DNA of 63,101 nt, counting the filler, from Collodictyon triciliatum (lineage: Eukaryota): assembly GCA_043381765.1 (NCBI GenBank). It is 5 parts of 5 records of this genome, joined end to end, with 100 filler letters (N's around TTAATTAATTAA, not from the genome) between each part and the next. Parts side by side here need not be neighbours in the genome. Positions count along the whole stretch, not along the records: positions 37,789 to 53,775 come from JBHJMP010001606.1; 4 more parts are not named here. One strand, written 5' to 3'. Below, in pieces: positions 9,788-50,500 of the stretch (positions within the stretch are counted from its first letter, which is position 1; each line of letters opens with the position of its first letter). The notes under the pieces were generated by a model. It saw nothing but the letters and a program-made list of their open reading frames with translations. It was not told where the DNA came from and did no database searches. Both the position numbers and the translations under genes were made by a program.

Positions 9788-10600
9788 CTATGTGGTTTTG
9801 TCGTTTTCATCATAATGGGTGATGTGCTTGTAAGCTGCACGGTTAATCCTCCCGGTCATGGTCTCATAGAGGCCAGAGACAGACTTGCCTTCCGCCGCCA
9901 TTGCTGGCCGCATGAGCTCCTCCACCCCGTTATGGGACGATATAGGATGGTACAGTCCGCCGTTATGGAGTCCATTGCTGGTCTGCGACATAACAACGAT
10001 GCTCGGGGACGGCTTCGCTAGAAACTTACACCACCAACGCCGCGATTCAAGGGACGGAATCCGATGAACACATGGCTGAGTTTGCACTCGATGCTTCTGT
10101 GTAGCGAGCACGCAAGTGTTGATACTTACTTTCTATCCCGTATTTGTGACTGTAGATCGAAAATTTCCTATGGAAGAAAAGTATGTCTTTAATTGTATTA
10201 AAAAATAGGTATCGATTATGGGTACCTGGGATGTTTTCTTACCATATGTGTATTGCGATGATGGCAAGGGGAGGATGGTGAGAACCGGCTCTGTCGGACT
10301 GAAAGCAGCCCTGGTGCGACACAGCTTAAGAACAGTGCGCAAGCCGACAGATGAATGCTTCCACAACTGTGACTCACAACACGTGACGTAGAAGACGCGC
10401 CCTTGTGTAACAGTGTTTCTTTTTCTCTTTTTCCTTCTGTTATGTAGGATTACTTTCAACACACCGTTTTGCTGGCTGGCTTGTGTGTGCCTTGCGATGC
10501 TGTGTTCTGAGTTTCTGGTAATTCCCTCAGTTCGCAAGGACGAGATGTTGACAACTCCTTCGAAATATCAATGATGCAGTGCGAGTCAATAGGCATTACA
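9788..10600 (-). CDS. Possible small uncharacterised spliced gene
   Basis: GC-balanced open segments bounded by plausible AG/GT sites (about 9788-10017, 10243-10310, 10455-10600); no recognisable motif and the frame joins are ambiguous. Confidence 0.25.
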
Positions 10601-10926: not shown

Positions 10927-13900
10927 TTACATCAAGTCCGAGCGCTCAACACCCCGTGGCTCGCGGATGAGCGACAGGCGATAGAGTACGTCATCTTCCA
11001 GGTGAGGGAGAACAGATAGATATTGTGCTAGTTGGGCGCTCTTGGGGAATGGGTACACGCCTAATTTGATGTGCGAGAAAAGAAGGACGAGGAATATGTG
11101 TAGGGGAAAGTAAGTTTGCGGTAAAAGCATATACTAAAAAAACCCGACATATTGTAATATTTTTTTTTAAAAAAGAGGGAGCATGAAAGAGATATGAAGT
11201 GAAAATGAACGGCTACCATATTGATACCGTCTGACCTCATCGATAACCTTGTATACTAATAAAAAGAGAAGGTAAATCACATATTAAACCCTTCTAAGTA
11301 GAGCTTTTACAACGTTGGATAAAAACAGTTCGAAAATAAAGCACAGAACCGATTAGTCAAATCGCAGGAGTGCATAGATTGAGAAGCAAACCAAGTTTTA
11401 GTTTGTCAAAGTTTATCTGTCCGTCTATGATGGTGGGATTTCCATCCTCGATATGTGTGAGGTCAGTCAAGTATATACCTGCAGATATATAAAATGATAG
11501 ATAAGGACAAAAAGATATAACGTGGGAATATGTGCCCATCAAATGCGTTATTTTTATGTCTTATGAGGTAGTTGTGTTGTGGGCAGATGCTTTTTTTTTC
11601 CTTTCGTAGTCTCAGCGGTCATGACTTAACATGGCTGAATAGAAATTTTTTTTATTTCTTGGTAAACTAACCGCTATCCAGTAAACGCCGTGAAGGTAGA
11701 GAGGAGTAGATTTTGTGGGGACAAAAGGAAATGAAATTTTAGCCTAATAAACTAATGTACGATAGAATACATAGCCGCTATACATAGACACCAATACTGC
11801 ACACAGTAAAGCCGCTGAAATAATACATGTAGGGCATGCAGGGAGGTCGGCATTGGTGCAGTGCTTCTCGATACTTTTTGAAGGAGCTTTCTGAACTCAT
11901 TAGCTCCTCAAGGGCAGCGAAGGCCTATCGTTTTCAAAGATATTGTAAATAATGTACTTTAGGAGACATGTTTGCCGCATGGTGTACATCACGAAATAGT
12001 GGCACAAAATAAAAAATGATTATGGTATTACTTCAAGACTTCGTTTCGGTACTTCATCTTTGGTATGCTTCAAGCGATGTACGGCAGATTTATTCAACCC
12101 AGATATCACAGCCATGAGGAGATGGTAATTATTGAGCTCTTTGAATTGCTGTAAATGGAAAGAAAAAAAAGGGGAAGAAGGCAACAAATGTTTTGTTCTG
12201 CTTAGAAATAGCCAAACACTGAATTCACTTGGAAAGCTAAATATACAAATCTATTGAAATAGACCTCTCCCAATGAAATCATTCGAGCCCATGTAAGAGC
12301 ACGGGAAGCCAAATCATCATGCCACAGTATACAGCTAGCAACCCAATTGGAAAGAGAGTTGAAGCGCTGGATGTAGTATAATAGATTTGATGCCCTGTGC
12401 TTGAACTTTGCGACATTCCAAGCTTGATTTAGGAATTCTACGGGCTGGGTTCAAAAAATAATAATAATAGAGGGGTGAGAAAAAATATTTCCCGTCTATT
12501 TAAGCATAAAGCCATGCCATATATCAACGTTTGAATATACGCACCTATGGCACTAAATTGAAAATAGGGTTATGGAAAGAGGAGAGACAGAGAAACCATG
12601 AACAAAAATGTATTTAAACCTTGATTGCACTATAGACTTCCATATCTAGTAAACTCATTTGTTTCGCAATTTCTGCTATGGGGAAATCCTGAAGGATTTT
12701 GAGGGGCAAGTATGAACTGTCTATGAACCGCAGGCCATCCTCGCGATTGTAAGGAATACTGGATAACCCTGTGTTCAACTGAAGAGAAAAGAGGAAAATA
12801 GACATAAAAATAAAAAAAAGAGGAGGAAAGGAGGAAAGAGGTTAACTGGTTTTGCTTAAATACTATCTCTATCTATGAGCCGCCTTATGAAATTAGAACA
12901 TTAACAGAAGCCAGAACTGCTCACAAGTGTGTAAAAAATGAATATATAATTTGTGGTGAAAAAATGAGATAGCGATGGCTAAGTTTATGACCTTTTTTTC
13001 TATTGTGGTCTTTAATTTCTGGGCAACGTTGGGGAAATTGTCGTTCACCAATGTCACTTCAGTAAACTCTGTCAGTTGTCTAATTAAGTCGTCGTTGAAG
13101 TCGGAGAAATGTGTTTCTAACCTAGTAAGTAGTCATTGTTATTTATTTTATATACAAAAAAAAAGTACATATTGTCTCATATTTCCATTTTATTCGGGTT
13201 GGTGGGCGTGCTATACCAGTTTTGAATGACTTGGCAGACTCTAAGCTTAATAGAAGATGCAGCTTTTTTGAAGCTCTCTTCATCGGGATATTCCTCCGTT
13301 TGAGGAACAGCGTATCTTTTATTTTCATCATAGCAACCGGAAAATATAAATATAATGCAGTTAGTAACGTGATGAGAGTTTGTAACGTTGAACGAGATAA
13401 TATACACTAATGAATTTATATTTGATCAAAATAAATAATAGGTTTTTGAATTTTTTTGGAAGAATGACCAAATCATTCCTATTTACCTCTCCATCAGTTT
13501 GCCAAAGAATTTTTCAGAAGATGTAAAAGATTGATAAGTCATGATGCATGCTTTCAGGAACATCGGGTCTACATATTGCGATGGACGTTTAGCAGCAGAT
13601 TGATTGACATAATATTGGGAAACGACTCTACGACCTTATCCTTTTTGCTCTTTATTACAATTTATTTTATTTTTTTACATAAAAGTAGATTTCCAGATGC
13701 ATATACCATGGGTTTTGTCAGATGTTAGGATTCGAACAAGGGAGTTCAGATTTCCTCTTGACGATGGCTCCTCGGCAGGTGTGTCCGTCCAAATATTGAC
13801 GTCAGATGTTTCATCAAGTATGAATTTTTCTAATTTGAATAGTATTTTACTTTATTTTAAAAAAGAGGAGATGGGGATAATAAAGGGAAAAAAAAAGAGT

Positions 13901-15863
13901 TAGATATGGGGATATCAAGGTTGCAGTCGAGGGTTTTTTCGTTCCTCCTCTACTTTACCATTTCACTACCCAATCATGCATTTATTATAATAGGATGTTA
14001 AAGAAGAAAATGAAGAGATATGTATAAAGGCATTCGCCATTACTGTAATTTATGAGAAGGATTTGATCTTTTTTTTTAAAAGGAAAAAAAAACAATACTA
14101 TTAAAAATAGGAGTTGCTATAATCGCAGAATAATATTGTCGAATTTTTTTTGTATTACTTCTTGAGAAACTCATCGAGACACGAGAGTCTGGTGCGGCTG
14201 TCAGGACGTGGTTTACCAAAAGTTGGAGATGATGAAGAGAGGCGCGAATGACGCCCACCAATTGCAGATATACATTGGGCTCAGTGCCGTCTGATGTACG
14301 GAGGCGATCGTCCTCTTCAAAGGTGTTGATTGCAGCCATCAAATGAGGGAGGCCGTTGTCCAAGGCACAGACGAGTCGAGCAAAATGAGGGGTGCACCGG
14401 ATGTAATCCGAGAAGTTTAGCAAAACAGCATGCAAACGGAGGACAAAAGCGTATCCGGAGGAGCTTGAGACAAGAGGGGGCTGGTCGGCCCGCAGGGTCT
14501 TTGTCAGTTGGCCAAGGGAAAGGGCAATGTCTTCCAGGGTGGCCTTGAGGCCTGTCAGGAATGCAATTTCCTCGGGCGTGGAGTCATCAGCAGAGGAGTT
14601 TGCCAAGGCTGCAGATGGAATGGCCGCCATGGCAGTGACCATCTGGATGAGATGGGATATTTCAACCTCAGCTATGAGCTGGAGGCGAGCAGAGCGGAAG
14701 GTGGCGAGAAGAATGGGGACGTAGTCGGCGATGCGACGGGCGTTTGGATCTGTGCGCTTCTTCCTGCGCATGAGCTCGAAGGTCTCGATGGGTATGTGAT
14801 GGACCTGCTTGGCCCACTCCAGGAGATTGTGCCTGTGGCGCGTGTGCGTGAGGGCGCTGCCAAGATTGAGGCAGGTGACGGACAACTCGGCCATGGTGGC
14901 GAGCAGGCTCTTGAACACGTCAATCCCAGACTCGTCCAGCGCGGTGCTGATGCGGAAGAGATCCTCCAGGCGGCGGCTTGTGGCTGCATAGCTGCTGCAG
15001 AGCGGGCCGATGTCAGCATCCTCAAAGTCGGGCCCTTGCAGAGACGCAGTGGCCAGCACATCCAGCACCATGGACGCCGATTGGCGCAGCGCTTTGGCCG
15101 CCGCTGTCGCCAGTTGCTGCGAGTACCGGTCCGTGGCTGGCGTGCTTGCATTTGCGACGGATCCGCCTGTTGATGCTGTTGTTGTTGTTGCTGCTGCTGC
15201 TGCTGCTGTCGATGCTGCTGCTGATGATGATGATTGATTGGGCGGCGTCTGCTGGGAAAATGATGATGAGGATGATGTTGTTGTTGGCGTTGATGATGAC
15301 GGTGCAGTCGATGGTGGCGGCGTGGATGCATTTGCGACGACGGAGGGCGGCGGGGACGAGATGGGTTGTCCCGGCTGCGTTTGGGGCTGGTTCTGCTGCT
15401 GGTTCTGCTGGTTCTGGGAGAGCAGGATGGGCAGCGCGTTGGAGGTGACGATGGAGGCTGTGGCTGTGGCTGTGGCTGTGGCTGTGGCTGTGGCCTGTGC
15501 GGCGTGGCGGCAGACGGTGTAGAGGCGCGTGCGGTGGAACTTGAGGGCCTGGACCCACAGGGCGAGGCGCAGCTGCGTGGCGGGGTCGACGGCCGGGTCG
15601 TCCTCTGCGCGGCAGATGTCGCGGGTCACGTCGTTGAGCGTGGCGGCGGAGCGCATCAGCTGCTCGGAGACTCCGCGGAAGGAGTGGCCCAGGAACTTGC
15701 CCACCGCGTCCGGAAGGCGCTCCCCGGCCTCCTTTGCCGTCAGCGTCGTCTGCAGCGGACTCAGCCCCAGGCGCTGCAGCGGGGTGGCGGCCGTGCGCGT
15801 CGCGGTGTGCCCGGAGGCGGAGGTGTTGCTGTCGCTGTCGATCGTCTTGGAGAGCTCGTCCAT
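10927..15863 (-). CDS. Ras guanine nucleotide exchange factor (REM + CDC25 domain) with a long helical/low-complexity N-terminal exon
   Basis: Spliced exons give FLKACIMTYQSFTSSEKFFGKLMERY (REM), [69 protein letters not shown]...QINFDK, LYRLSLIREPR...TAA; the 5' end lies near a contig end and may be incomplete. Confidence 0.93.
11672..11673 (-). other. 2-nt microexon (CG) of the RasGEF gene
   Basis: Minus strand reads ...ggatAG|CG|GTtagt...; joins TAC AT + CG + GT ATA TAC = Y-I-G-I-Y and restores the frame. Confidence 0.75.
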
Positions 15864-15886
15864 TGGGCGTCTCTGCTGTGTCGTGG

Positions 15887-15994
15887 CTTTTTTGTTTTTT
15901 GCTTTTTGTTTTTTGTTTTTTGTTTTTTGTTTTTTGTTTTTTGTTTTTTGTTTTTTGTTTTTTGTTTTTTGTTTTTTGTTTTTTGTTTTTTGTT
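15887..15994. repeat. (TTTTTGT)-type simple repeat at a contig end
   Basis: Seen directly next to the N run. Confidence 0.9.
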
Positions 15995-16038
15995 NNNNNN
16001 NNNNNNNNNNNNNNNNNNNNNNNNNNNNNNNNNNNNNN

Positions 16039-40010: not shown

Positions 40011-43925
<3,915 letters not shown>

Positions 43926-44469
43926 ACCTGTGTAATTTCGAAAGAGAGCAGCTAAACAAAACCTGCCCATTCCCCCAGCACACACATACATCGCACACAT
44001 ACACCGCACACATATAGCATACTCACCCAAGCAAACACTGGGGCTGCTTCCAACCTCCATCCAAACACTGCCCCAAATAAACTCTGGCAAAAGTGCAACA
44101 ACCAAAGCGCAAACCACCCAAAATACTCGGGCCTGTCGCGTACTTGCCTGAGGCCACGAATGTTGGATAACCGCCACAGACGGCGCCACGCATCTCCTTC
44201 CGGAATAGGCATCTCCGACCTGAGTCTGACAAATGTGGAGATTATATGTTAGCCTCGATTCAATCTGATATCCCTTCCTTCCCTTTAATTGAATGAGAAA
44301 AAAAATTGTTCGCCTAGCTTCTCAGCCGGGTTAGAAAAGGACGTTCCCTCAGTGGGCCAGATACGTGCGAATCGTTCGTGCCTGTCGCTGCGTATATTGC
44401 TGCCAAGCTGACAAAATGCTTCGGGTGCACATAAGCCTGAGGTTGGGGTTGGGGAATGAGAGGGCGGAT

Positions 44470-46446
44470 TTATTCGGCGTTGGCAGCATCGCGCTGGGCA
44501 ATCTTTGCCTCGATGCGCTCCTTGCGCTGGGCATAGGTCAGGCGGACTGGGCGGTGGCGCACCTGCTGGGCAGGGACCTTCTTTGTGGTGTTCTTGGCTG
44601 CGGGGTCCTTGCGGATGGCGGCGTGGCAGGCCTTGTACAGCGACTCCAGCTTGTCGGCTGTGGCGCCGGCCTTGATGAAGGTGCTGAAGTGGGCGTTGTA
44701 CTTCTCCTCGTCGTCATCCTGCATCTGGCGCATGTAGTCGGCCACGTGGCCTCCGAAGATGCGGCGGCGGAGCTCCTTGGGGTCGAAGCTCTTCGCGTCC
44801 TTGGTGAAGCCAGGGAAGCGGTTGGGCTTGTGCGGGATGCGGAGGCCTCCATCGACGGCTCCCTGGTTGGTGTGCGAGGACGCATCAGTGGTTGTGTTGG
44901 TTCACTCAGACAGTTAGTTGGTTGGGTAAGAGGTTTGTATGGCTATGATGTGGCGTGGGTCTGCGAATAGGGCTTGCCTTGAGGGCGCCGAAGACGCGGT
45001 GGCCGGTGGTGGTGGCGACAAGGCCGACGTCAAGGAAGGTCTGGAAGGGGCGCGGCTGGCCCTCCTCAGTGGGGTCTTCGACCAGGTAGAACTCACCAGT
45101 GGCCTGTCAGTTACGTGTGGGCCAGAGTGTGAGTCAGGGGGTCGCGGTTGGGGTGACAGGTTAAGCAGGGAGTGTGGGCGTGAAGGTGGGGTCAGCGAGT
45201 GTGGGTGCTCTGGAGCTGACTCACTTCCTTCTTTCCGACGTATTGGGTGTCGAGCTTCAGCTTCTGGAGAACACGGCGGGCAAGGAGGAGGCCGGTGGCG
45301 TAGGCTGTGAGAGTGGTATAGTTGTGAGAATGCTGTAGCATGTCTTTGGACGCGACTGAACAAGAGTAGAATGTGACAAACCAGCGGCGTAGTTGGTCAG
45401 ACCGAAGCTGACACCATAGCGGGGGAGCTCGTGGGCGTAGGCAGCTGTGAGGCACACATCACCAGAGATCTTGGCATAGAAGACCTGGGCGATGACATCC
45501 TTGTTGGTCTGGAAGCAGTAGGTTAAGGTGTGTAACATGGAGGGTGTCTCAGAGGCAACAGAACCCGTGTGTGGACGATCCAATTTTCAGGGAAATTGGG
45601 TGCATATATGAGTCTGTTCGTCATGTCTAATGTCTGGTTCAGTCTCAAAGGATACGAAACGGACAACGAAGCGGTACTTGGGCGAGTTGTACTTGTTCTT
45701 GTCCTGGATGATAAGTCCTTTGCGGGCGCGGTAGTCGGTCTTTCCCTCTGTTAGTAGACATAGGTTAAATACTAGAATGGTGTGATAAGTAGAGGGGGAA
45801 GAAAATAGGGACACTCTAGATCTCCCATTTCAAAAGATGAATTATGGCGTGGAATTGCAGCTACTAACGGCGGCGGCGGCGGTACTTGACTTGGAAGCGC
45901 TTGAAGTAAGCTTTGTTTTTGACGAGCTTGACGAAGGCCTGGGTGGAGGTTGGGTTAGAACTTGTGACAACTCTCCTACGGAGATATGATCTGGAAACTG
46001 GGCGAGAAGGATCGGGGTGAAACTGAGGCTCATGTCCGCGATCGAGATCAGTCCGTTGTGACATGTTCGTCCTGGGTGGGAATATATGCCAAAAGTCATG
46101 TCGGCCAATCTTGTGCCGGAAATTGCGCCCTAATTCTGTCAGGAAATGGTGGACTCGATACAAGTGCGCTCGATACTCGCACTGAACCACGGATTATTTT
46201 TTTGCGGTCTTGAAGGTCTGATAGAGCCAATCCAAATTTTTCTCGCTTCGTAAGGTCTTGACATGGTTACCAAGTGTTATGATAAAACAGAGCAGTGATC
46301 GAATTTCGTTTTGCTCTTCTCTTACAACGGAGTTGTGCGAAGAGACCTCCTCCGACGGGCTTCGTTACTTCTCTTATCTCTTTGGCTAATGTTGGTATAT
46401 GGGAAATCTGCTGTGGTTCTTGTTTTAAGGAGGAAGCACTTACCAT
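44470..46446 (-). CDS. RPL5: 60S ribosomal protein L5 (uL18)
   Basis: ATG|intron|[29 protein letters not shown]...[22 protein letters not shown]...[10 protein letters not shown]...[17 protein letters not shown]...FGALK|GAVDGGL...AHFSTFI...HAAIRKDP; strong C/G-ending codon bias. Confidence 0.99.
44863..44977 (-). other. GC-AG intron in RPL5
   Basis: AAG|GCAAGC...ACCAG|GGA; removing it gives the conserved FGALK-GAVDGG. Confidence 0.85.
45509..45655 (-). other. U12-type (minor spliceosome) GT-AG intron in RPL5
   Basis: 5' site GTATCCTTT; branch point ACCTTAAC about 13 nt upstream of the CAG end; removal gives VVRF|TNKD. Confidence 0.85.
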
Positions 46447-46928
46447 TTGATGTCGGGGTCTGAGGGAGGTGCAAGATTGCCTCTGGTGTTTGCACAATAA
46501 CGGGTTGCCGGAGGCGGAGCGAATGTACGAAAGAGACTCATTGCTTTTGCGAAAAATACTTTCTCCCGAACTTGATCAATTTTTGTTATCGACGCCAGCC
46601 AAAAAAGGCAATATATTAAGTTCGAATGATGTAAATCTATCAGCATAAAAGGAAATTTCTCCGACTTCTCCCATTTTCCACAAGTTCGGTCAATTGATGC
46701 CAAAATCGTGACCCATGCATGAAGTTACATCTAGATCATGAAAATTGTAATAAAAATACATAAAAAATAAAAGTATAATCATTATATTTAATAAATTTAA
46801 AAATTTAAAATCAATTACATATATTCCACATTAAGAAAATAGAATATTCTGATTGCTTTTTCCCAGCCTCTGATGGCTCTAAACCGGCGCTTTTTCTCCT
46901 GGCGCGACAGAATTCTTAAAATCTTTGA

Positions 46929-46996: not shown

Positions 46997-47518
46997 AAAC
47001 AAACAAATAAACATACAAACATACTAACATACAAATAAACAAATAAAAAATAAACAAATAAACAAATAAACAAACAATTATTAAATAAAATAAGAAAATC
47101 ATCAATCAATCTGCTATTCTCTGCCTATTGTATTTCATTCGTTTCTCTTCCTTTTCTTTCTTGACCCAAAGAGTATCCCATCCATCCCAACTCGGTAAGA
47201 CATGCTAACCTGCCCCTTAAATCTAATTAGGGAGTTAGATACTCATTATGTTCTTTTAAAATGCGTATACACGAATAGCTACTAACTAGCAGAAGCACAG
47301 AACATTATTCAAAAAAAAAAAAAAAAAGGGACAGGAAAGAGATATGCTCATAGCCAAAAGTTTATTTATTTTACCCCTTTATTCATTAGAGATCAATTGA
47401 ATTGCAACGGAGCAAACAGATATATAAAAAGAAATATTGCAAATGACTAGCTAGCTAGTCGTAACAATTGTAGGTAAGTCAATTCATGTAAGCAAGAAGC
47501 AAGAAGCAAGAAGGTGTA

Positions 47519-50500
47519 TCATGCGGTGTCCAGTACTGATTTTACAGGCTTCCTTGAGAAATTACTTCTTACCGCAACAAAAATGTCGACATCAGGGTGA
47601 TTCCCTACAGCACAATTTTGTGTGACCTTGTCTACAAGTTCAAAGTCAATGGAGGGACAGAATCCTTGCAAGGGGAGTAGCCTTTCGAAAACCATTGCCG
47701 TTTCATGGTATATGTCCTCGCTTTCCAATAAAACAGAAAGGCTCAATATCGTATGCAGCAAGTCATTGCTTTGCAATTGCTTGGAAAGTTTTTCAACTAG
47801 AGGATTTCCATCTACTTCCTTCAATTTTAACAATTCGCATATAGTCAAAATCAGAGATAGGAAGCGCAAAGTTTTGGCGTGGAGTTGTGCCTTTCTGATT
47901 TGGGCGTTATCGGAAGAACGTTGAGAAATCGATGGAATGGATGAGATTTGTTGAGTCAAGAGCCACCCGTACCGACGGCAAACGTGGACGATGTTTGTAT
48001 TTTCTTGTACAACAAAATTAAGGCCCAAATTTGTTTGAATAAAGGACTGGAGGCATGCCCAAGATAAAGTCGATAGGAGATGAGAAGAGTGAAAAAGAAG
48101 CGACATTAATACTGGCAATATGTCTGGCTTGCTCTCTACAAACCATTCCATAGATCCATGCATTGAGGTGTTACAAAGACCGATGATGGATGCCTCTGTC
48201 AAACAAGGAGCCTGGCTTGACATAATACAATGTCCGTAAGTTGCAACAAAAATCTCCTTATTCGAGGTTACGTGTTCTTTCACCAAAGCCATGTTAGAAG
48301 AGAGATGAAGAGCAAAATATTTCAAGGTCATTTGAAGCCCTGGAAGATTTGTCCAGCTGTTCGTTTCATAAATATGAGTGTTACTTGCAACATTCAAAGA
48401 TAACACACATAAATCAGGATATTTAGCCAGAATATTGACCCATTTTTCATTGAGCTTGGAATATATGATTTCTGCAAACTCTAAATTTCTTATTGAGCGT
48501 GACAACACACCCAAGACGATTAAGGCCAAAGGATACTTCGATGCTAGTTTGATTAAGACAGGAACAACATAGCGAGATGAAATTATGCCCAGCAAACACT
48601 TTTGATACGTTTCAATTTGCGCAAGAAACCATAGTGGACAAGACTCTGGAAAGTATTGCAACAACAGGTCATTAAAGTATGGCTTCACCATTGAAAATTC
48701 CTGGGCAACTTCTGCAAAATTGGCATTTTCTTCGCTCAATTTCGAGAAAATATGGGAAATTATAGACAAAAACAAGGGAGCACCCAATACTTTTTTGATT
48801 CGCATCATTTTGTTCACAAAGTATGATTCACTGGAATCTGTGAACACTATTAAAGAGCCAATGGCGTACATGATACTTGATGAGTATGTCAAGGATGAAT
48901 GATATTCCATTAGGTTCAACATCGAAGTATCATTCAAGGGGAATGCTTTCATACATTCTTCATAAGCGTGCCTACTTTGCTTGCTATGACCTAGTTGAGA
49001 GTAAGCATATGCCATGTTCAACACCAAAGAAGGGTCATCAAAGTTGGAACCGATAAACTTCTCTGCAAGTTCTATGCTCTGATGTAAATAGAGCTGTCTA
49101 ATGGAATCAAATTCAAAAGAATATGTCGGCATATTAGATTTTGACTGGGTTATTATGGTACTGATTTTTTCTATCCAGGGAAACGATGTCCATCTTGTTT
49201 CAGGTCTTATTTCACTGATGTCGTCAACATATTCTAAATGGCAGCTTTGCAATACCTCATTCTTGAGCCTAATCCCAAGATGGTCCAGCACACGCATAAA
49301 GACGATATTGGTATTTAGTGTGTTACCAAATTCTTCGTCTGAAACGAGTGGTAAACTAGAACACATGGGGTATTTTAATTTTATCCGTCCAAGCCAACTC
49401 AAGCGATCATTTTCGTGCTCCAGGATCGATAAAATGAATCCAAATATATGGCCTTTCAATTCTGAATAGGGCATGTTGCACTTTGCACGGAGAATGGCTC
49501 TTCCCTCTTCTTTCATAGTTCGACTCAGCATTTCACAAGCCAGTAGACATTTCCACATTTCACTCTGAGGAGAAGGTTTCAATGCGAGCATTTGATAAAT
49601 TCGCCCCATGAATCTAAGGTTGATCCCAACTTGATGGAGGTAGACGCATACATGTCTTTGTGGTTCAATGGGAAGGCAATCAATCCAGGTTGAAATATGC
49701 TCATTTAAAAGGTAATAAGTTGCCCGCTGGATAGAGGCTCTGGCCAAAAATTTCTCTTGAGGACGGCTTGAAACTGTTCCAACATCCTCTGCCTCACAAC
49801 AAACGGGCTCAGGGTATATACGAAGAAACTCATGCCTAAAAAAACTTGTATTTTTCATTTCAGGTAGGAATCTAGGGCTGGTAAAATACTGGTCGATTAC
49901 TGTTCCATCAATAGATGGAAAAATATTTTGCGACTCGAATAAGTATATCCGTTGGTCTGTCGATCTATTACAAAAAAAAAAAAAAAGAAGTTACTGTAGA
50001 TATTAAGTCATGTATATATACATGAATAAGAGTTGAGTAATGAAGGAAAAAAAGAGTAAGAGAAAGAGGAGAACGAGGAGAAAGATATGGAAAATGAGAC
50101 ATACCGAAATGCCATCATCCCTGGGTGGCCATAGTACCATTTTTGCTGATTAAGAGAACCTTGCACATTGCAATATTGAAAGAGAGACTGAATATGGTGA
50201 ATGACGATTGGACTATCCTTTGAATCTTCTATACCCACAGAATTATCATACACCAAATTGCTATTTTCTTCAAAAATGCCTGTATCTGCTGTAAATAGAA
50301 ATCGAAAGCCAAAATAGTTTATCATAATTGATAGCGGAGAGAATATTCCTCTCTTTGATACGTAATGGGGATTCGGTGTATTTTCAAAAACAGATTCCTC
50401 CTTCCATGATTTCCTCATAAAGTTTTCCAATGTGATAAAAGATCGAAATTCATTCGCGAGGTAATTCTTTGCCAAATGCTCATAATCAAATTTTGAACAA

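Follow-up and report, generated by a model that had tools for sequence, protein, structure and literature searches.

The third intron of a ribosomal protein gene of Collodictyon triciliatum (assembly GCA_043381765.1) is very probably a genuine GT-AG intron of the U12-type, or minor, class. It lies at positions 45509..45655 of the window, by which we mean the whole stretch of 63,101 nucleotides (nt) that was analysed. The gene is on the minus strand and, as judged from the protein it encodes, is that for uL18, the eukaryotic ribosomal protein L5 (RPL5). Intron 3 opens with the 5' splice site GTATCCTTT, carries the branch-site motif CCTTAAC shortly before its terminal AG, and is removed exactly in RNA sequences from four metatranscriptome studies.

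Gene structure and excision of intron 3

When joined by their coordinates, the seven exons of the RPL5 gene give an 891-nt coding sequence for a protein of 296 amino acids, and the exon frames match both Pfam families expected in such a protein, Ribosomal_L5e (PF17144) and Ribosomal_L18_c (PF14204). The spliced model is identical at all 296 residues to P0001, a protein that likewise contains both families and that was predicted from cDNA-like contigs, the longest of which is 1017 nt. Since these contigs do not exceed 1017 nt while the gene spans about 2 kb, we take the source of P0001 to be mRNA-like.

Splicing was followed in the contigs of four metatranscriptome runs (X1, X2, X5 and X9), each from a different study, which we aligned to positions 44300-46600. 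In all four runs a joint leads from 45508 to 45656 and skips 147 nt, bounded by CT..AC on the plus strand and hence by GT..AG on the minus strand, with zero ambiguity in its placement. The shorter side of this joint measures 83-92 nt in X1, X2 and X5 and 21 nt in X9, the last being below the 31 nt required of a bridging record. The same junction is found in L001, a cDNA-like contig from a metagenome collection, in which positions 183-274 correspond to 45747-45656 and positions 275-401 to 45508-45382. Intron 3 is precisely excised in RNA, and its spliced form exists. RNA-contig depth inside the intron is zero; assembled contigs, however, say nothing on retention or on the efficiency of splicing. 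The proposal in the preliminary description of this DNA that the intron rate-limits ribosome biogenesis is therefore left without support, as the RNA contigs give the spliced form alone and cannot gauge retention.

Of the other introns, all four runs also confirmed 4, 5 and 6; intron 2 was confirmed in two runs (X1 and X2) and intron 1 in one (X1). The joint at intron 6 can be placed only to within 3 nt in every run, and we read this intron as GC-AG because no other placement gives a recognised pair of boundaries. The transcripts, which came from lake, freshwater and aquaculture samples, aligned at no less than 95% identity, and most records at no less than 99%. Because nearly all contigs fit with few letters changed, the source organism or near-identical strains are present in samples of these kinds.

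Some departures from the gene model were also seen. L001 encodes the identical protein, with exons 98.4-100% identical to the window, and its positions 1-109 (5' untranslated region, compared with 46444-46560) were unmatched anywhere in the window, while a contig of run X1 joins the window's own first exon. This mismatch points to a second copy of the gene, to an alternative first exon beyond the window or to another strain. One X9 contig joins across intron 2 (45748-45871, minus strand) with borders that are slightly displaced, a single additional letter between the two sides and several substitutions; its source is probably a related strain or another copy of the gene, and not alternative splicing. 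The coding span of RPL5 also stands out in base composition, with a G+C content of 54% in sharp contrast to 34% (42000-44000) and 37% (47000-49000) in the flanks.

Splice signals, chance and competing explanations

Intron 3 separates F55 from T56 (FVVRF/TNKDV) in phase 0, its first base being the G at 45655 and its last two the AG at 45510..45509. Passages of a preprint on Physarum polycephalum (bioRxiv 10.1101/2020.10.12.336362) give the U12-type motifs as [G/A]TATCCTT for the 5' splice site and TTCCTT[G/A]AC for the branch site, both of which pair exactly with minor small nuclear RNAs (snRNAs). The donor of intron 3 matches the first of these in full. When compared with CAG/GTAAGT, on the other hand, it agrees at only 3 of 9 positions, whereas the other five RPL5 donors agree at 5-7. 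The motif CCTTAAC fits seven of the nine positions of the branch consensus. It offers two candidate branch adenosines, one 15 nt (45524) and the other 14 nt (45523) away from the final base of the intron; either A of the U12 branch motif is usable as branch point according to passages of Turunen et al. (PMC3584512). The GT..AG termini, finally, form a matched pair, as is required of U12-type introns.

The preliminary description had placed the intron, its donor and CCTTAAC (45522-45528) correctly to the base, and its view of an RPL5 intron with U12-type donor and branch motifs at the right spacing is borne out by the motifs, the spacing and the exact excision in RNA. Its remark that there is little polypyrimidine tract was not confirmed: pyrimidines make up 9 of the 11 nt between branch motif and AG, and 21 of the last 30 nt of the intron, the top value among the six introns (17-20 of 30 in the others). 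The part of PMC3584512 on U12-type introns describes them as having no distinct polypyrimidine tract, and puts the optimal distance from branch to 3' splice site at 11-13 nt. All six RPL5 introns are G-poor (13-20% G), however, and the pyrimidine tract thus does not discriminate intron 3 from its neighbours. Indeed, the other five introns resemble intron 3 in several ways, namely in their similar length (77-505 nt), their G-poor, C-rich sense strand, their branch-like motifs and the pyrimidines before their AG. They differ from it in their donors, which read GTAAGT, GTTAGT, GTTTGT, GTGAGT and GCAAGC as opposed to GTATCC, and in that CCTT[AG]AC is found in none of them.

Single motifs of this kind are not rare in the window. 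There are two copies of GTATCCTT against 1.26 expected, and 32 of 100 shuffled sequences reach at least two; CCTTAAC also occurs twice, against 6.72 expected. The second GTATCCTT copy, at 48529-48536 on the minus strand, falls within a long open reading frame of 779 amino acids, in keeping with the earlier statement that no other intron in the window has the same donor. For a given intron, the probability of ATCCTT at +3 to +8 together with CCTT[AG]AC ending 8-20 nt before the 3' end is 3.6e-4 x 2.8e-3 = 1.0e-6, computed from the base composition of all six RPL5 introns pooled and with the ends fixed by RNA. Even with about 100 introns in the window, a number that is a rough guess and not a count, the expectation would be about 1e-4. 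A strict scan of the window for the composite of donor and branch site returned three rows, one of which is intron 3. The second pairs the donor of intron 3 with a distant CCTTGAC..AC and runs across exons, and the third, an AT..AG pair 2.8 kb apart, spans open reading frames. Intron 3 is the only sensible U12 composite candidate in the window, and its motifs and their spacing far exceed chance.

A number of observations nevertheless weigh against the U12-type assignment. Directly upstream of CCTTAAC stand the bases CA instead of TT, and the branch distance of 14-15 nt lies 1-2 nt past the quoted optimum. Among 1000 simulated sequences of 63 kb, 90 contained a composite of donor and branch site with matched termini within 500 nt. 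Domains of the minor-specific proteins (65K, 48K, 35K, 31K, 25K and 20K) were absent from six-frame Pfam scans of the window (146 + 94 frames and 12 open reading frames), a result that is uninformative for the genome; the families that these scans did return were leucine-rich repeats (LRR), RasGEF, Sel1, Roc-COR LRR, PI3/PI4-kinase, protein kinase, eIF3_p135-like and PH.

The remaining points are ones that would also fit a rival reading, in which intron 3 is a U2-type intron of the ordinary kind that the major spliceosome removes and that resembles a U12-type intron by chance. Intron 3 is in phase 0, a phase that passages of bioRxiv 10.1101/2020.10.12.336362 describe as disfavoured among U12-type introns, and its pyrimidines before the AG are as high as in the other introns. 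The TTAAC within its branch motif is also acceptable as a U2-type, YTRAY-like branch motif, and by eye CTAAC/CTGAC/CTCAC-like motifs lie near the 3' ends of neighbouring introns; the branch motif is thus less discriminating here than in animals. The donors of a neighbouring kinase gene, inspected by eye only, are very degenerate (GTAGCC, GTGCGT, GTATTT, GTTGAT, GTACAC and others), and since the major spliceosome of this organism may tolerate odd donors, the poor fit to U1 becomes a weaker argument. Lastly, Rfam matched no minor snRNA in the 63-kb window, either at the gathering score (0 matches) or at E<=1, which again is uninformative for the genome. A chance resemblance would, however, have to produce nine donor and seven branch positions that all match simultaneously, at the joint probability of about 1e-6 per intron (about 1e-4 for the guessed 100 introns) given above, in an intron whose donor agrees with the U1-pairing consensus at three of nine positions only. 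The points against do not offset these 16 matching positions, and we consider it distinctly unlikely that intron 3 is an ordinary U2-type intron.

Another explanation would be that intron 3 is a relic or hybrid, once U12-dependent and now spliced by the major spliceosome in a lineage where the minor spliceosome was recently lost or is being lost. Punctuated wholesale losses of minor introns and their snRNAs are described as common across eukaryotes in passages of PMC10639083. Without U11 and U12, however, there would be no selection for 16 specific bases, yet both motif cores are perfect, and one would expect a highly expressed ribosomal protein gene to lose or convert an intron of this kind fast. 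A relic of this kind is extremely improbable.

A probable minor spliceosome and comparison with other lineages

If intron 3 is of the U12-type, as we favour, its removal would be expected to follow the established course of minor splicing. The U11/U12 di-small nuclear ribonucleoprotein would recognise the intron as a unit, with U11, and later U6atac, pairing with the rigid 5' splice site, and with U12 pairing with CCTTAAC so that one of the adenosines of this motif bulges out to act as branch point. The AG located 14-15 nt downstream of the branch would then be picked as 3' splice site, while the five remaining RPL5 introns would be removed by the major spliceosome. We infer that U11, U12, U4atac and U6atac are present in this organism and act on intron 3. 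On the sequence evidence, a minor spliceosome in this organism is very likely, because such motifs would not be maintained without U11 and U12, and because minor introns and their snRNAs are widely, though patchily, distributed. Passages of PMC10639083 document them in numerous lineages of protists and early fungi, among them Amoebozoa, early-diverging fungi and oomycetes, and the prior for minor splicing is therefore not low.

Eukaryotes have lost the minor spliceosome on many occasions, and a U12-type intron with perfect motifs and RNA-verified borders is an inexpensive and strong indicator that the organism bearing it retains this machinery. Minor introns are also thought to be slowly spliced, and a U12-type intron in a ribosomal protein gene with high expression lends itself to asking whether this slowness extends beyond animals. 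Taken alone, the finding is one more member of a well-described class and leaves existing concepts unchanged; its interest would rise if the lineage proves to be one in which a minor spliceosome was previously unknown or is unusually active.

Compared with the canonical GT-AG U12 introns of animals, plants and various protists, intron 3 has the same kind of donor, GTATCCTTT, and the same CCTTAAC 14-15 nt before the AG; it belongs to GT-AG, the commoner U12 subtype, and like them is a lone U12-type intron among the U2-type introns of its gene. It is unlike them in that its host is a cytosolic ribosomal protein gene, in its phase 0, and in that its dependence on minor snRNAs is deduced from its motifs.

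The expanded U12 system of Physarum polycephalum offers a second comparison, for which we relied on passages of bioRxiv 10.1101/2020.10.12.336362. Physarum is likewise a protist with GTATCCTT donors. As these passages describe it, U12-type introns occur throughout its gene set and their retention is not raised, CCTT[G/A]AC is present in only 20 of 3,648 introns with a perfect donor, and TTTGA located 9-12 nt from the 3' end, together with a co-evolved U12 snRNA, takes the place of the classic branch motif. In RPL5 of the present organism, by contrast, the classic branch motif is present, and one of the six verified introns is U12-like.

As to the origin of intron 3, a recent gain from a mobile element with U12-like ends, as proposed for Physarum, would be compatible with U12-type splicing, and it would agree with the position of the intron after codon 55. 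In human RPL5, the splice variant c.189+1G>C reported in passages of PMC10555097 puts an exon border at c.189/190, after codon 63, and the position of intron 3 differs from this border if the N-termini align gap-free, an alignment that we assumed. Several points speak against a mobile origin: blastn of all six introns against the window gave self-matches only and no second copy, the branch site is the classic CCTTAAC and not of the Physarum TTTGA type, and just one of the six RPL5 introns is U12-like. We hold a recent gain of this kind to be very unlikely.

Full-text searches found no paper on a U12-type or minor intron in RPL5; catalogues in supplements and databases were outside their scope. 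The main text of PMC1386722 mentions neither RPL5 nor U12, and in PMC4615840 ribosomal protein genes appear in the reference list only. A c.3+1 position in PMC3972785, considered as a possible RPL5 border, was set aside as it concerns RPS26. Intron-bearing relatives were sought by scanning metagenome contigs with P0001, which matched 438 stretches, 172 of them encoding relatives; 80 loci were kept, and L001 and L002 were inspected in detail. None of the 80 is an intron-bearing genomic RPL5 relative, each being tabulated as one unbroken match span of about 750-920 nt.

The nearest RPL5 relative, P0123/P0227 (from L002), shares 74-76% identity with the query, while all others, land plants included, are at about 60-66%; in EukProt, the RPL5 proteins of Rigifila, Paradermamoeba, Sappinia and Welwitschia are found at 62-64%. 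Taken together, the closest named relatives, from plants, Rigifila and Amoebozoa, reach 61-64%. The C-terminal exon, when searched alone, favoured early fungi at about 47-52%, and in this search only, Amoeba proteus appeared at 48%. In a maximum-likelihood tree of 24 rows chosen from 232 proteins, the query pairs with its 74-76% relative (support 100/99) outside the groups formed by fungi, by plants and by the sampled Amoebozoa, and the pair falls within a clade with Rigifila and four further rows (support 88/87). A single protein of 296 amino acids cannot settle the placement, and the CRuMs flagellate Rigifila appears to be joined only weakly.

A bolder possibility is that these sequences represent a widespread freshwater lineage, separate in the RPL5 tree from the fungi, plants and Amoebozoa that were sampled, with a fully working minor spliceosome that is used efficiently on the highly expressed RPL5 transcript, at a position unlike that in human. 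We regard this combination as unlikely. If true, it would hint that minor splicing in this lineage is unusually efficient or unusually frequent, which would make it the second such case after Physarum.

Neighbouring genes and other features of the window

The coordinates of the RPL5 gene, its introns and the splice signals of intron 3 are collected in Table 1.

Table 1. Features of the RPL5 gene, in positions of the window, with the evidence for each.
Feature	Position	Strand	Evidence or remark
uL18/RPL5 coding region, ATG to TAA	44470..46446	-	exon model, Pfam, RNA joints, cDNA contig L001
RPL5 exons 1-7	46446-46444, 45938-45869, 45747-45656, 45508-45382, 45304-45225, 45103-44978, 44862-44470	-	
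Intron 1, U2-type, GTAAGT..CAG, 505 nt, directly after ATG	45939..46443	-	joint 45937 to 46443 (cut +1), X1 only
Intron 2, U2-type, GTTAGT..CAG, 121 nt, phase 1 in codon 25	45748..45868	-	X1, X2, L001
Intron 3, candidate U12-type GT-AG, GTATCCTTT..AG, 147 nt, phase 0	45509..45655	-	X1, X2, X5, X9, L001
Intron 3, 5' splice site GTATCCTTT	45647..45655	-	full match to U12-type consensus [G/A]TATCCTT
Intron 3, branch-site motif CCTTAAC	45522..45528	-	followed by 11 nt, then AG
Intron 3, 3' splice site AG, context TTCCAG/ACC	45509..45510	-	sequence and RNA joint
Intron 4, U2-type, GTTTGT..CAG, 77 nt	45305..45381	-	four runs and L001
Intron 5, U2-type, GTGAGT..CAG, 121 nt	45104..45224	-	four runs and L001
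Intron 6, GC-AG, GCAAGC..CAG, 115 nt	44863..44977	-	four runs and L001

Rfam detected no intronic small nucleolar RNA across the RPL5 gene region, and a sub-threshold match to a bacterial small RNA in the same region was taken as chance. Elsewhere in the window, the sole match at E<=1 is a weak full-length one to SNORA73 (U17/snR30-like, H/ACA class) at 9826-10043 on the minus strand, which scores 28.8 bits (gathering score 74; E = 0.0032).

Just downstream of RPL5, at 40700-43940 on the minus strand, Pkinase matches spread over many short exons mark an AMPK/SNF1-like protein kinase gene, the one whose donors were considered above. A CT-rich microsatellite fills one of its introns (about 43650-43850) and an (ATT)n run another (about 43330-43440). 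No transcript-derived protein for this gene was matched in our search. For the 779-amino-acid open reading frame near RPL5, the ESM Atlas returned only UNC-45/TPR-like leads, all below 0.9.

Further away, a G+C-rich island (14001-16000, 56%) without any Pfam match contains long open frames that overlap and occupy both strands. An intron-free, ROCO-like open frame of 1263 amino acids at 27396-31187 on the minus strand contains many LRRs and a weak COR-A match, and RasGEF exons are located at 12023-12450 on the minus strand, together with further LRR frames. This content of ROCO-like, RasGEF and LRR genes is, in our impression, typical of amoeboid or amorphean protists.

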